Below, in pieces: positions 28,655 through 59,048 of a stretch of DNA of 64,000 nucleotides. Position 1 is the first letter of the stretch. Each line of letters starts with the position of its first letter. This DNA comes from Verrucomicrobiota bacterium (lineage in GTDB: Bacteria; Verrucomicrobiota; Verrucomicrobiia; Limisphaerales; CANJSG01). The DNA lies in the NCBI GenBank assembly GCA_038209745.1, contig JBBQXJ010000003.1, forward strand, positions 46,284-110,283, in the 5' to 3' direction. The position numbers and the translations under genes are program-made. The notes beneath the pieces are model-generated. The model did no database searches, was not told where the DNA came from, and saw nothing but the letters and a program-made list of their open reading frames with translations.

Positions 28655-29422
28655 TCAGTGGCCGTTGCCGGTGGCCGGACTGCACCAGAGCCGGTTCTTG
28701 GCCGTGAGGTTTTGCTCCTGTCTGAAAACCTCGTAGCGCAGGAACTCCACGTGCCCGTCGAAGCTCAGCATGATGCCGCCCTTTTTCCCGTGGCGCTTTC
28801 CGAGATCCTGGTCGCCGGACGGATAAGCCGCCGCATCCCGATAGGAACCCGCCGATTTTTCGTCCGGTTCCCAGGACAGAAAGGCGTCGGGCCTGAAGTC
28901 GGCGAGCTTGAAGGTGCCAGTCCCCTTGGCGCCGTATCCGCACACGGCTCCGTTTTGGATATAGGTGGACATCTTGTTGATCCGGGCCTTGAAGGACGCG
29001 AGATCGGTTAGATCGAGGGGGCAGCGGTAGACTTCCTTCTTCTTGAGGTATGTCCAGAACAGGCCGGTCTCGTAAGCCTTGGTGGGATCCACATTGTAGG
29101 GGGCTATGACGAGGCTGGGGGCGAAGCCGTCTGGCGTTTTGGTCGCGTCGTAGAGCCAACCCTGGACACTCGGTGGATTCCAGTTGGGGTGGGCCAGTCG
29201 GTCCTGGTTGTCGGCGGCATACATCTGAGAGGCCAATCCGAGCTGCCTGTTGTTGTTGAGGCACTGTGTGCGCTGGGCCTGTTCCTTGGCCCTGGCCAGC
29301 GCTGGGAGGAGCATTCCCGCGAGGATCGCGATAATGGCGATGACGACCAGCAGCTCGATCAAGGTGAGGCCCCGGGCGTCTGCTGGGCGGCCTGGTTTCC
29401 GGGAATGGTTTGAATCGTTCAT
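28655..29422 (-). CDS. Prepilin-type N-methylation protein with H-X9-DG-type C-terminal motif
   Basis: [30 protein letters not shown]...[22 protein letters not shown] (H-X10-DG variant). Confidence 0.9.
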
Positions 29423-29818
29423 GTTCAATCTCTGACTGCCTGATGCCGGCCTCCCCCGGCGGGCGGACAAGGCCGACCTGTGCCCAGCACGATCAAGGAC
29501 ATCCTTCTTATAGGGCGAAGCAGGGTCGGCGTTGAATCCCCAATAAGGGTTGGATCCACGCGAAAGCATGCGGATCAGCCTGCATTCATGGGCTTTTGAG
29601 ATTGCCCCCCTAATGTGGTATGGCGTTTTGGACTACGAAGCGGATCAATTAAACAGTAGTGGCAGGCCCAAGCCGCAACCCGGTCCGGGAATGTTATTCC
29701 TGGCTCGGCGACTGCGCGGTTCTGGATCGTGTCCGCTGCCAGGATGTCCCCCAAGCAGGGCCCGCACTTTCGCGACGCTCCTGAGCCGTAACCTGAAACG
29801 TCCCGATCCCCAAAAGCC

Positions 29819-55503: not shown

Positions 55504-55673
55504 ATCGATACGGGAATGGTCCGCCATTCCCAACGTGAATGCAGGAGGGAACCCCGTGGGAATCGGGGACGGTTGCGCCACTGTAACGGGTTACAAGCTC
55601 CCAAGAGCCACTGGAACGGAGACGTTCTGGGAAGGCGGGAGCGAGGTTTGAGGCCCGGAGTCAGGATATCGAT
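55504..55673 (+). ncRNA. Cobalamin riboswitch aptamer
   Basis: Closing stem ATCGATA/TATCGAT; AGGGAA-CCCCG-TGGGAAT-CGGGG; GCCACTGT at 55577; GCCACTG at 55607; TGGGAAGG at 55628; AGTCAGGA B12-box end. Confidence 0.9.
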
Positions 55674-55792
55674 CGCACTCACGCTCGTCAGGATTCCGCC
55701 CGGCTCTTCGCCGGGCGTGGTCCGCTTCTCCGCCAAAGAGAAGGACGGGGCCAGAGAAACCGCCCGTTGCGGTTTCGTTTGCGTCTTCGTTC

Positions 55793-55830
55793 GCCTTCAT
55801 ACTTCCGGCCGGGTGATGAAGGCATTTTTT
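55793..55830 (+). terminator. Leader terminator (probable riboswitch expression platform)
   Basis: gccttcat...atgaaggc-atttttt, located between aptamer and first ATG (55924). Confidence 0.75.
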
Positions 55831-55923
55831 ATGTCCATCCCGGCCGAACGCACTGGTCTCCGCCGCTTAAACCCGGCTTCCGCACGCCCGTTCCGGGCGG
55901 GCGGAACCACAAGACCTGTACTC

Positions 55924-56736
55924 ATGAAACTGAAAGTGCGTTTGTCCGTCTCCGCCGCCCTCTTGGGCGCATCCTTCACTTCTTCGGCGCAATACGCGTC
56001 GTCCGTCATCCGCTACGATCTCGGAACTGGCGGTGCTGCCGGCTACACCGATTCGGCCACCGTTCTCGGCCAACCGTCGCGGAACAATCCGTTCGGTCCC
56101 GTCGATCCCTTCAACAGCCAATACGCCAAGACCGACCTGCTCTCCATCGGAGCCGGCGGCTTTCTGGTGGTCAAGATGGACCATGCCGTCGGGAACGATC
56201 CGGGGCACCCCTTCGGCCTCGATTTCTTGGTCTTCGGCAACGCCGGCTTCAACATCGTCAACGGCGACTACAGCGGCGGCGGCATCACCGACGGCTCGCT
56301 CTACGGCGCCAACACCGGTTCCACCCGCGTTTCCGTCAGCGCCGACGGCGTCCAGTTCTTCACGCTGAACACCTCCATCGCGCCGATCGTGGACGCGTAT
56401 TTCCCGACCGACGGCGCGGGCGACTTCACCAAACCGGTGGACCCGTCGCTCACGCCGGCCTCGTTCAACAACCTCGGACTCGCCGGCATCGGTCTGGCCT
56501 ATGGCGGTTCCGCCGGCGGCACCGGCTATGATCTAGCGTGGGCGGTCGATGGCAACGGCGCCTCCGTGGTCGTGCCCTCCGTCGAATACATCCGCATCGA
56601 CGTGCTCAGCGGCAAGGCCGAAATCGACGGGATCTCGGCGGTGTCGGCGGTCACACCGGTGCCCGAGCCGTCGAGCATGGCGCTCGGCGCCTTGGGCTTG
56701 GGCGCGGTCGCTTTGCTGCGTCGTCGGAAGGCCTGA
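55924..56736 (+). CDS. PEP-CTERM protein with BtuH-like putative cobalamin-binding domain
   Basis: Signal peptide; LSIGAGGFLVV.MDH.V.N....DFLVFGNA and YDLAWAVDGNG....VEYIRI motifs; VPEPSS + TM + RRRK. Confidence 0.8.
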   Translation: MKLKVRLSVSAALLGASFTSSAQYASSVIRYDLGTGGAAGYTDSATVLGQPSRNNPFGPVDPFNSQYAKTDLLSIGAGGFLVVKMDHAVGNDPGHPFGLDFLVFGNAGFNIVNGDYSGGGITDGSLYGANTGSTRVSVSADGVQFFTLNTSIAPIVDAYFPTDGAGDFTKPVDPSLTPASFNNLGLAGIGLAYGGSAGGTGYDLAWAVDGNGASVVVPSVEYIRIDVLSGKAEIDGISAVSAVTPVPEPSSMALGALGLGAVALLRRRKA

Positions 56737-56754
56737 TCCCGATCGGTCTGCTCG

Positions 56755-57732
56755 ATGAAACGACCGTGTTCATTGCTTCTCCTTCTTCTGCTGCTGGCGC
56801 GGTTCGCGCCGGCAGCAGAGTGGAAGGAGGACTTCAATTCGGATCCGTCGCCTCGGGGTTGGCGGGTCTCCGGAGATGCTTCGTTGTTCCAGTGGAACCC
56901 CGCGACCGGCGACTTGGCGGTGACGTGGGATTCGTCGAAGACCAACTCGTTCTTCTACCGCCCACTCGGCACCGTCCTCGCCGAGACGGATCCGTTCGAG
57001 GTCGGTTTCGACGTGGTGTTCTCCGAGATCACGGCGGGCGGATCCGACGGAGCGGGAGGAACCTTCGAGCTGGCCTTCGGGCTCTATGGGACGGTGGCCG
57101 CGTTTCGGACGAACTTCCTCCGCGGCGCCGGCGTGAACGCGGCCAACGGACCGCGTGACGTGGTGGAGTTCACCTACTTTCCCGACACGGTGAACGGCTT
57201 TGGCGACACGATTTCCCCGTCCATCTGGTCGCGCAGCAACCAGCCGAATGTGGACTTCATTTTCCCCTATCCGCTCCTCGTCGGCGTGCCCTATCGGATC
57301 GAGATGAAATACGATCCCGCAACGAGAGCGCTCGACACGGTGCTCGTCTCGAACGCCGTGCCGGTGCTGACGAACCGGGTCGTGTTGTCGGCCGCCTCGA
57401 CGGGCTTTCGCCTCGATGCGATCGGCGTCGCCAGCTACCGGTCCACAGCGGGAGATTCGATCCTGGCCCACGCCCGGATGGACAACTTCACGGTCGTCGT
57501 CCCGGATCCTCCGTTGCTGGATCTGGCGTGGACACCCGACGGCCCCGAGCTTGGCTTCCTGTTGCCCACGAACTGGACCGCGGCCATCGAGCGGACCGTC
57601 GATTTGTCGTCCTGGGAAAGGGTCGGTGAGACCAATGACATATTGCATGGCGACGGCACGTTCCGACATGTCGTCGACGCGGCGTCGCCCGCGACGAACG
57701 CGGTCTACCGACTGAAGCTTTCGCGGCCATGA
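56755..57732 (+). CDS. Secreted beta-sandwich hypothetical protein with C-terminal putative sorting domain
   Basis: Signal peptide; EDFNSDP...GW ... MDNFTV; C-terminal [10 protein letters not shown]...VYRL. Confidence 0.75.
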
Positions 57733-58475
57733 CCGGCAATCGGAACAACCTGCGAAGCCGCCTGGGATTCACCCTGGTGGAGCTGCTCGTCGTCATGGTC
57801 ATCGTCGCGATCCTCGCCGCGATGGTCCTGCCCGCGACTTCGCGCGCCAAGCGGGCCGGGCAGCGCGCGGTGTGCGCGAACAACCTTCGTCAGCTCGGTC
57901 TGGCCACGCATCTCTACTGGCAGGACAACCGCGACGCGGCCTTCAAGTATCGCGGCGCGGCCGTGGACGGAGGCGACGTCTGGTGGTTCGGCTGGCTCGA
58001 ACGCGGAACAGAAGGGAATCGCCGGTTCGATTCGTCGAGAGGCGCGCTTTGGGCCTGCCTCCAGGGGCGCGGCGTCGAGGTTTGTCCCGCCTTCGACTTC
58101 TCCGATCCGCTCTACAAGCCCAAGGCCCGGGGAGCTTCCTGGGGCTACGGGTACAACCTCGCCTTGTCGACCGCGCAGAGCGCTCCGGCCTTCCGCGTTT
58201 CGCGCGTTGCCCGGCCGTCCGCCACCGTGCTCTTCGCCGACGCCGCGCAGGTCAACGACTTCCAGGCGCCGGCATCGCCCGACCATCCGATGATCGAGGA
58301 ATTCTACTACGTGGACAGCGGCCAGAAGACCGTCCACTTCCGCCACGCCCAGCGCGCGGTAGCGGTCTTCATCGACGGTCACGTCGAGCCGCAGACCATG
58401 GCGGCGAACTCGCTCGATGGCCGGTTGCCGCGCGAGCGAATCGGACGGATCGATCCGGCGCGGATGCAGCCATGA
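57729..58475 (+). CDS. Prepilin-type N-methylation protein with H-X9-DG motif
   Basis: [25 protein letters not shown]...AK...[23 protein letters not shown] overlap with upstream gene. Confidence 0.9.
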
Positions 58476-58688
58476 GCCTGGTCAAAGCGCTTGCACGGTC
58501 TCCAAGCAGTGTGCAATTTTTTGGCGGCGTTTACGGTGGGTGCCGCAGCAGTCCCCGGTTGGGCAAGGGTGTCTGTGGAATGCCGATCCTGAATGAAAAA
58601 GCCAAGACCGATGGGTCTCTCACGGTGCGTCCGCACCGGCCTTCTCCTGGCACAAACCTGTTTCTCTGCCGAGCGTAGTTGTTAGACC

Positions 58689-59048
58689 ATGATGGCTTCC
58701 GTTTCTGGTAATCGCCCCTCCATAGACGGCGTCTGTCCCGCCTGTGGCGAGCCCAACGGCTGCCAGTCCAGATCCGTCGGATCGGACGCGAAGACGTGCT
58801 GGTGTTTCGACGTGAAGATCGGTGCGGAAAACATCCGTCGGATCGCCCAGAACCTTCCCTCCGTCGGCTGCCTCTGTGTCTCCTGTCTCACCGCCTCCGC
58901 CGGTGATCCTGACGAACCGTCCGAGCCCGGGCGCGACTACTACATCACCGCCGCGGGAACGCTTGTCTTCACCGCCGCTTTCCATCTCCGCCGAGGAAGC
59001 TGCTGCGACAATGCCTGTCGCCACTGCCCGTATCAGAGAGGATCCTGA
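58689..59048 (+). CDS. Cysteine-rich CWC domain fused to DUF5522-like domain
   Basis: CP.CG.PN.C...CWC...CLC..CL then DYY....G.LVFT..FHLRRG.CC...CRHCPY. Confidence 0.8.
   Translation: MMASVSGNRPSIDGVCPACGEPNGCQSRSVGSDAKTCWCFDVKIGAENIRRIAQNLPSVGCLCVSCLTASAGDPDEPSEPGRDYYITAAGTLVFTAAFHLRRGSCCDNACRHCPYQRGS

Follow-up and report, generated by a model that had tools for sequence, protein, structure and literature searches.

The window analysed here is a stretch of 64,000 nucleotides (64 kb) from a Verrucomicrobiota bacterium of the order Limisphaerales, and the subject of this report is an operon on its forward strand in which a cobalamin (vitamin B12) riboswitch stands before the genes of three exported proteins, one of them a prepilin, and which may well serve the acquisition of the vitamin. 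The riboswitch aptamer lies at 55547-55670 (+), where the Rfam covariance model RF00174 matches over its positions 46-168 with E 2.1e-14 and 67.2 bits, the gathering score being 31.5. It is the sole gathering-level Rfam match within the window and also the only Cobalamin match found in the source genome (4.58 Mb, 92% complete), for which 150 of 400 candidates were scored. Downstream of it, sequence and folding delineate an expression platform of two hairpins, the first at 55756-55776 (+) and the second, terminator-like one at 55793-55823 (+), which is followed by an A and six U residues (55824-55830, the U-tract being 55825-55830) and is present in the minimum-free-energy (MFE) and centroid folds alike. 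The stem of hairpin 1 reads AAA/UUU in the source genome and GGG/CCC in the congener G002, which is a compensatory change. Hairpin 2 presumably acts as a terminator, judging from its form; a consensus terminator scan gave no terminator on the + strand between the aptamer and the first gene because the loop of this hairpin exceeds 8 nt, and it was recognised by visual inspection and folding.

Next come three closely spaced genes, here called g1, g2 and g3. The first (g1, 55924-56736, +, 270 aa) encodes a protein which is secreted, has a PEP-CTERM segment by Pfam and resembles the BtuH domain according to a profile search and an AlphaFold2 (AF2) model; the second (g2, 56755-57732, +, 325 aa) encodes a secreted protein with a ConA/legume-lectin fold by AF2 model and fold search; and the third (g3, 57729-58475, +, 248 aa) encodes an H-X9-DG prepilin-type protein, as indicated by Pfam, NCBIfam and its motif. 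The gap between g1 and g2 is 18 nt, and g2 and g3 overlap by ATGA. A fourth gene (g4, 58689-59048, +, 119 aa), a Cys_rich_CWC and DUF5522 protein by Pfam, comes after a gap of 213 nt, within which a 6-bp stem with a 14-nt loop and U6, read from the sequence at 58491-58522 (+), may form a weak terminator; this hairpin is absent from the MFE structure predicted for the gap. Because of the long gap and this terminator-like hairpin with its U6, it is uncertain whether g4 is co-transcribed with g1-g3 in the source genome. The unit of g1-g4 contains no TonB receptor, BtuFCD or cob gene, and the locus is flanked by purM and a CoA-binding gene, both on the minus strand. A search for RNA sequencing runs covering the locus found none. 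An earlier note made from the letters of this stretch had described such an aptamer, a leader terminator, the three packed genes and the want of transport and synthesis genes, and this description is borne out, with the terminating function of the leader hairpin deduced from its form; its CWC/DUF5522 gene stands downstream on the same strand as claimed, the doubtful part being its place in the transcript.

The same note had proposed to survey the linkage of riboswitch and pilin among relatives and to record the presence or absence of btuB. We sampled 60 relatives, namely six of the same genus (G001-G006) and 54 from other families of the order. A homologue of g2 occurs in 34 of the 60, and 31 of these 34 have a riboswitch upstream in the same orientation: in 28 it is matched by RF00174 within 1.6 kb, in G056 at 3.6 kb, and in G007 and G015 it is matched by the adenosylcobalamin (AdoCbl) model RF01482 of the same clan. 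As for the three g2 relatives with no switch upstream, two (G028 and G055) have the gene at a contig end, and in G044 the switch controls g1 and g3 elsewhere. A full g2 is present in 33 relatives, and exactly these 33 possess a single g3-type pilin.

We then took one uptake-type riboswitch locus per genome (n = 56, the source genome and 55 relatives) and scanned its downstream frames with hidden Markov models (HMMs) for g1-g4 and for a receptor. Thirty-nine of the 56 loci start with g1/g2-like genes, and 36 of these 39 have a g3-like pilin gene (partial in G025); the genomes of the other three, as well as G025, have a g3-type gene on another contig. The trio g1+g2+g3 is found in 19 of the 39 loci and g2+g3 in nine, while seven have a protein of 640-810 aa with a g1-like domain together with a more divergent pilin, five of these seven also showing a domain like the C-terminal one of g2; g2 stands alone in two loci, one of which is at a contig end, and the arrangements g1+g2 and g1+g3 occur once each. 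In six genomes g1 and g2 share one stop-free frame, and in most loci the gene directly upstream of g3 ends in the C-terminal domain of g2. A survey started from g3 was also made in a species-level genome collection, some members of which are genomes already sampled, and covered the best 80 loci of 306 relatives, which come mostly from Verrucomicrobiota, several of them from Limisphaerales or Pedosphaera. By an nhmmer riboswitch model, 60 of these best 80 loci have an upstream switch on the same strand; the other 20 comprise 12 cut by contig ends, five with g2 at the edge of the flank and three with no switch within 3.5 kb, and an Rfam search found nothing in nine of the switch-negative loci. 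In two loci (L169, 3097-4253, and L172, 3071-4212) a g3-type pilin gene comes directly after the riboswitch, at about 230 nt, and neither g1 nor g2 intervenes.

The other 17 of the 56 uptake-type loci start with a BtuB-like TonB receptor. No locus (0/56) has both a receptor and g1/g2-like genes, and with a receptor in 0/39 module loci the record of btuB follows a clean either/or pattern. The same holds for whole genomes. A receptor HMM, which was built from 12 riboswitch-linked receptors and matches its own 12 by construction, was run on 61 genomes and gave 720-858 bits in 16 of them, all with a receptor behind the switch and four of them not in the model; in the 17th receptor genome (G058) it found pieces only (best 229 bits), and in all other genomes it gave at most 251 bits, 13 being without any match at E ≤ 1e-20. 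The 17 receptor genomes, on their side, yielded no g1, no g2 and no g3-type pilin (0/17 for each). The split runs even through the genus: the trio is present in the source genome and G002, and the receptor in G001 and G003-G006, with an aptamer in the source genome that is more than 90% identical both to that of G002, which stands before the same operon, and to those of G001 and G003, which stand before a TonB receptor. Replacement at the same locus within the genus was considered and ruled out, as the flanks differ, with purM and the CoA-binding gene in the source genome versus DMFA2_C-like and LuxC genes in G001, the LuxC homologue of the source genome being on another contig; the cassettes therefore have the riboswitch in common, not the chromosomal site. 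Further riboswitch loci of the order control nrdAB in 8/8 examined cases and metE as well in three.

Some side observations concern the receptor loci. The receptor of G058 (L060, 962-2861) is split over frames with TGA, TAG and TAA stops and is possibly a pseudogene, in a genome that is 70% complete. One receptor locus (L051) also carries PduO, BtuF, BtuD and BtuC, and Diphthami_syn_2-like genes lie downstream of riboswitch-linked receptors in L049 (by Pfam) and L057 (by tblastn).

The protein with the clearest bearing on B12 is that of g1. It has a Sec-type signal peptide and a PEP-CTERM segment (PF07589, 26.9 bits against a cut-off of 20.7), its family conserves the VPEP motif with P247, E248 and P249 invariant, and the source genome has a single copy of it and three exosortase matches. 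A profile built from 30 homologues was searched against all PDB sequences, where it matched the H domain of BtuG1 (8blw_B) with E 7.7e-5, the match lying within that domain, and BtuH2 (7biz_A) with E 0.26, so that the sequence signal of homology with BtuH may be called weak but specific. With the AF2 model of g1 (predicted local distance difference test, pLDDT, 86), Foldseek ranked 8blw_B and 7biz at places 1-3. In VIA comparisons the model gave Z 14.7 with 8blw_B residues 390-660 (root-mean-square deviation, rmsd, 3.6; 158 aligned; 22% identity) and Z 14.4 with 7biz_A residues 314-592 (rmsd 3.1; 152 aligned), the best unrelated fold being a jelly-roll at Z 9.7. By these comparisons, g1 is distantly homologous to the BtuH domain with which Bacteroides binds B12, and it is a candidate corrinoid binder. 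According to the paper on its structure, BtuH2 is a high-affinity B12 binder which binds via its C-terminal domain and had no structural relative when solved (PMC8941943); a domain homologous to BtuH is described for BtuG1 (bioRxiv 10.1101/2022.11.17.516869), and a 2026 review places BtuH predominantly in Bacteroidota and three Firmicutes species (PMC13616437).

The product of g2 has a signal peptide and matches no Pfam or NCBIfam family, and none of 35 examined members of its family (35/35) matches any Pfam family at E ≤ 1. Its AF2 model (pLDDT 88) consists of a ConA/legume-lectin sandwich at residues of about 18-254 and a small C-terminal beta domain at 255-325. VIA aligned it to legume lectins with Z 15.8-16.1 over about 210 residues, but since many ConA-like families score Z 13-15, it is assigned to the superfold only; a search of PDB sequences with the g2 profile brought lectins only, at E 0.12. 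An identity of g1 or g2 with DUF4465/BtuJ was considered and is not supported, as neither has a PF14717 match (g1 and g2 at E ≤ 0.1; 35 g2 members at E ≤ 1). An alignment-based co-fold of g2 (20-325) with g3 (36-248) scored 0.00, a value with no bearing either way on binding. As an observation apart, G010 has a second g1-g2 fusion (G010:C18:27794-29395, a 542-aa frame), and the riboswitch locus of that genome (on C21) has g2+g3 only.

The third protein appears to be a dedicated prepilin. Its class III signal peptide is matched by N_methyl (31.4 against 21.2) and TIGR02532 (28.5 against 16.3); the glutamate at +5 of the prepilin motif, E18, is invariant in relatives. In the motif H206-x9-D216-G217, H206 and D216 are invariant in 35/35 relatives and G217 is kept in at least 90%. 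g3 itself stays below the cut-off of Pfam DUF1559 (PF07596), with 20.8 versus 23.3 and a match confined to profile positions 3-28, and 30/35 of its relatives match this family at E ≤ 0.01, so that by sequence g3 is best read as a divergent subfamily of H-X9-DG/DUF1559. The NCBIfam search gave g3 no match to TIGR04294, which we take to be the name of the H-X9-DG family. In the source genome the subfamily HMM gives g3 400 bits and the other 42 of 43 prepilin-like open reading frames (ORFs) at most 100. For the globular domain the PDB holds no solved relative by sequence, the matches being pilin helices only (a GspG helix); the N-terminus has sub-threshold matches to GspG/GspH-type pseudopilins, and a search of a structure-cluster atlas with g3 returned DUF1559-type clusters only, which have no structure. 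A prepilin peptidase (Peptidase_A24) is encoded on contig C114 of the source genome. A g3 paralogue is also seen within the window itself at 28658-29632 (-), a prepilin-like open frame with 82 bits against the g3 HMM.

The source genome has a frame of 1321 aa with a B12-binding domain, taken by its size to be MetH, and three further B12-binding matches; searches found no CobS, no class I nrdAB and no match to the N-terminal part of a relative's MetE, and one short Meth_synt_2 ORF is present. Apparently, as far as its genes tell, this bacterium uses B12 but cannot make it. Four ORFs with a Plug domain exist in it, and they score 138, 110, 49 and 24 bits against the receptor HMM, of which the members score 711-857. 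In five further module genomes CobS is absent (5/5) and B12-binding-domain proteins are present (5/5), MetH-sized ones included; four of the five, namely G052 (one contig, 96% complete), G050, G012 and G044, are without any Plug domain, and G056 is a module genome with one Plug-domain protein. To our knowledge, the BtuB type is the only outer-membrane transporter type for B12 in diderm bacteria. The organisms examined in this way need imported corrinoid and have no BtuB-type receptor; the riboswitch-controlled module is the obvious candidate for the outer-membrane step. It may be added that congeners have a second, full-length cobalamin riboswitch (L028 and others), which in G001 precedes nrdB-nrdA; with 150 of 400 riboswitch candidates scored, neither this second switch nor class I nrdAB was found in the source genome, and hence its ribonucleotide reduction is possibly wholly B12-dependent, or the locus is unassembled.

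The range of the module and its variants bring in further genes. Outside the order, g2 was found in none of 150 genomes of the phylum at E ≤ 1e-10, and g1-like domains were found in 12 of these 150; among the six strong g1-like matches in other classes of the phylum, five have a Cobalamin riboswitch before them, and a pilin gene adjoins the g1-like gene in six of seven outside-order loci examined. At L137 (913-3154), genes for a Diphthami_syn_2 protein (ATP-pyrophosphatase-like), a DUF6580 membrane protein and a BtuF-like Peripla_BP_2 protein (all by Pfam) are inserted between g2 and g4-g3, and the same three occur at the same place in L105, L129, L158 and L162 by tblastn likeness. The source genome has a BtuF-like gene, 42% identical, on C54, and a DUF6580 gene (107 bits) on C11 (L183, 3156-11882), outside the window. 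DUF6580 has no match in PDB or NCBIfam, and our literature search found no paper on it. Secretins are matched six times in the source genome and T2SSE ATPases 15 times, including short frames of about 370 aa, which are taken by size alone to be PilT-like. On C11 the DUF6580 gene has as neighbours a metallophosphoesterase, pilM, two unassigned ORFs and a secretin, a short T2SSE-family ATPase gene, read as PilT-like, precedes it by 2 kb, and a PduO-type cobalamin adenosyltransferase follows at 4 kb; this cluster could provide g3 with its filament machine, or the composition of the cluster could be a coincidence.

The companion gene g4 scores 45.1 against 24 with Cys_rich_CWC and 68.3 against 25 with DUF5522, and no signal peptide is seen in its product. 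A g4-like gene occurs in 12 of the 56 riboswitch loci, downstream of the receptor as well as of the pilin module, and is thus a recurrent companion of B12-riboswitch uptake loci; G013 (L074) and G018 (L088) have it between g1 and g2. In G013 the g4-like gene and g2 are joined in a single open frame, an odd arrangement given that the g4-type product lacks a signal peptide, and one that may be a fusion or an assembly error. One study has a CWC protein within the corrinoid-synthesis cluster of Sulfurospirillum (PMC7755780), and no paper on DUF5522 came up in the literature search.

Taken together, a B12 switch before three exported proteins in bacteria without BtuB points to an undescribed route of B12 acquisition. 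We lean, by a modest degree, towards the reading that the operon is a B12-repressed corrinoid acquisition module which in this order takes the place of a BtuB-type TonB-dependent receptor. The earlier note had supposed that surface proteins capture B12 here and that a dedicated (pseudo)pilin assists them, and this supposition gains support from the covariance-model match, the conserved linkage, the either/or pattern and the BtuH-like g1. In mechanistic terms, high cellular corrinoid would let the riboswitch end transcription in the leader, as the hairpin and U-tract suggest, and at low corrinoid the three exported proteins would be produced. On fold and context, g1, held at the surface by its PEP-CTERM/exosortase anchor, and/or g2 would capture corrinoid extracellularly, and either or both may thus be binders. 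The prepilin g3 would be cut by the prepilin peptidase and then assembled into a type IV filament/secretin machine of the cell, where it might link the binder with its load to transit across the outer membrane and the periplasm, by analogy with the uptake of DNA by competence pili; the module as a whole would in this way move B12 over the outer membrane. A BtuF-like binding protein and the DUF6580 membrane protein might take the vitamin onward, with g4 as the likely recurrent companion in the cytoplasm. A more far-reaching form of this idea, which we hold tentatively and would not back at even stakes, is a type IV-filament vitamin importer: the H-X9-DG pilin would dock or carry the B12-loaded BtuH-like and lectin-fold binders and draw B12 via a secretin into the periplasm, replacing the TonB receptor in receptor-less Verrucomicrobiota, and by extension the H-X9-DG/DUF1559 families of the Planctomycetota-Verrucomicrobiota-Chlamydiota (PVC) bacteria would be substrate-specific uptake adaptors.

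Several results weigh against an acquisition module of this kind. The relatives share ancestry and are not independent samples, and because of this relatedness the counts given above overstate statistical independence; besides, part of the riboswitch candidates in the relatives' genomes was scored (34 per genome). The BtuH contacts to the corrin and the two-metal phosphate site are listed in the review as His-476, Tyr-510, Gln-333, Asn-399, Glu-406, Asp-522, Ser-582 and Glu-584 (PMC13616437). In the profile alignment Asn-399 of BtuH2 pairs with N106 of g1, in a GNA stretch, and N106 is not invariant; Phe-401 and Glu-406, residues also taken from that review (PMC13616437), fall in a 7-residue stretch missing from g1, and the remaining contact residues lie beyond the aligned stretch. 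Moreover, g1 is absent from 11 of the 39 modules, and ten of these 11 genomes have no g1 at all, so g1 cannot be the sole binder; there is no B12 binder among the 50 best fold matches of g2, whose ConA-like fold is generic. The four Plug-domain ORFs of the source genome could still carry B12. At the inner membrane no clear BtuCD was found in the source genome (FecCD best 36.8 bits). Finally, a role of the pilin in export or anchoring is just as conceivable as one in import.

These objections lead to other explanations of the same genes. One possibility, doubtful in our eyes and still the nearest competitor, is that the module captures only: it would be an extracellular or periplasmic accessory for scavenging B12, comparable to BtuH, BtuG and BtuJ of Bacteroides, with the pilin tethering or presenting the binders and with entry through the outer membrane by a route outside riboswitch control, such as a generic TonB receptor, a porin or a secretin pore. 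This would suit the kinship of g1 with BtuH, which is an accessory and not a transporter in the account of the review (PMC13616437), and the Plug-domain ORFs elsewhere in the source genome (four) and in G056 (one) might offer such a route. But the accessories of Bacteroides are co-encoded with BtuB, according to the same review (PMC13616437), while here not one of the 39 module loci has a receptor; g1, g2 and g3 are missing from all 17 genomes that do have the receptor, and four of the five module genomes tested have no Plug domain at all. A second possibility turns the direction around and makes g3 a cargo-specific pseudopilin of a type II secretion-like machine, which would push g1 and g2 to the surface and have no part in B12 import. 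The sub-threshold likeness of the g3 N-terminus to GspG/GspH-type pseudopilins and to the GspG helix in PDB fits this, as does the position of the g2 C-terminal domain at the end of the gene directly upstream of g3 in most loci; g2 has a Sec signal only, and to act extracellularly it would need to get past the outer membrane, and the 43 prepilin-like ORFs of the source genome would fit a large set of such adaptors, each with its cargo. Yet we consider it unlikely, for it leaves the entry of B12 into receptor-less genomes unexplained, and in L169 and L172 the switch stands directly before g3 without an intervening g1 or g2.

Acquisition itself could also be questioned. Given that the cobalamin riboswitches of the order control B12-independent isoenzymes in 8/8 second loci examined (nrdAB, metE), and that lectin folds and pili are, as general knowledge has it, typical parts of adhesion, the operon might supply a B12-independent substitute function or change the surface under B12 scarcity, for instance for adhesion to B12 producers. 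This seems highly improbable in view of the specific likeness of g1 to a B12 binder, of the exchange between the module and a BtuB-like receptor behind nearly the same aptamer, and of the BtuF-like protein that some relatives encode inside the operon.

If the reading as a corrinoid acquisition module in place of BtuB is true, g3 would be the first ligand-linked member of the large, function-less H-X9-DG/DUF1559 family, with a handle for experiments in that it is present in one copy per genome and is switched by B12. The BtuH fold would be extended into Verrucomicrobiota with another anchor and other partners. There would also be an answer to how abundant auxotrophic environmental bacteria without a TonB-dependent receptor are supplied with B12, which bears on the competition for the vitamin in soils, waters and guts, and if the pilin mediates import, the mechanism would be categorically new. 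The either/or distribution with respect to BtuB makes the hypothesis directly testable. Among the papers listed by our literature search, which does not cover subscription journals, none ties cobalamin riboswitches functionally to pilins, PEP-CTERM proteins or DUF1559, and none describes the module.

Regarding known systems, secreted B12 binders other than BtuH have been described. BtuJ/DUF4465 proteins (PDB 9FCT, 9I2L) are secreted beta-sandwich binders which also occur in PVC bacteria and are often linked to B12 transport genes, according to the study that describes them (bioRxiv 10.1101/2025.08.21.671476). They appear to differ from g1 and g2, which have no PF14717 match and in which the GTPAYF/NTPAY motif is not seen; BtuJ is also not among the fold matches listed for either. 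Much closer are BtuH2 and the BtuG1 H domain of B. thetaiotaomicron, surface lipoproteins (PDB 7BIZ, 8BLW) that have the same fold as g1 and are exported like it; for BtuH2/BtuGH and g1 alike, a cobalamin riboswitch controls the gene and the host is auxotrophic for B12. In contrast to BtuH/BtuGH, with which it has about 22% identity, g1 carries no lipobox but a Sec signal and a PEP-CTERM anchor and is without PKD or propeller domains, and it is never co-encoded with BtuB (0/39 module loci), its partners being a lectin-fold protein and a pilin.

The g3 protein shares with the H-X9-DG/DUF1559 proteins of Planctomycetota and Verrucomicrobiota the class III signal peptide, the H-x9-DG motif and membership of a large paralogous family. 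Whereas the wider family has no assigned function, and none of the papers found for its family terms concerns B12 by title or abstract opening, the g3 subfamily is single-copy, goes one-to-one with g2 and is riboswitch-linked.

Classical uptake of the E. coli type consists of a btuB riboswitch, BtuB with TonB, and BtuFCD. It is likewise a riboswitch-repressed uptake locus, and the same switch drives a BtuB-like receptor in 17/56 loci of the order; the source genome departs from it in that the unit lacks a receptor, the riboswitch-linked receptor group has no member in the genome (at most 138 bits) and no clear BtuCD was found. Competence (pseudo)pili and type IV pili take up DNA, and the proposed common principle is that a pilin-borne binder brings its cargo through a secretin on retraction, secretins and short T2SSE frames being present in the source genome. 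The putative g3 machine would differ from the competence pilus in its cargo, a protein-bound vitamin.

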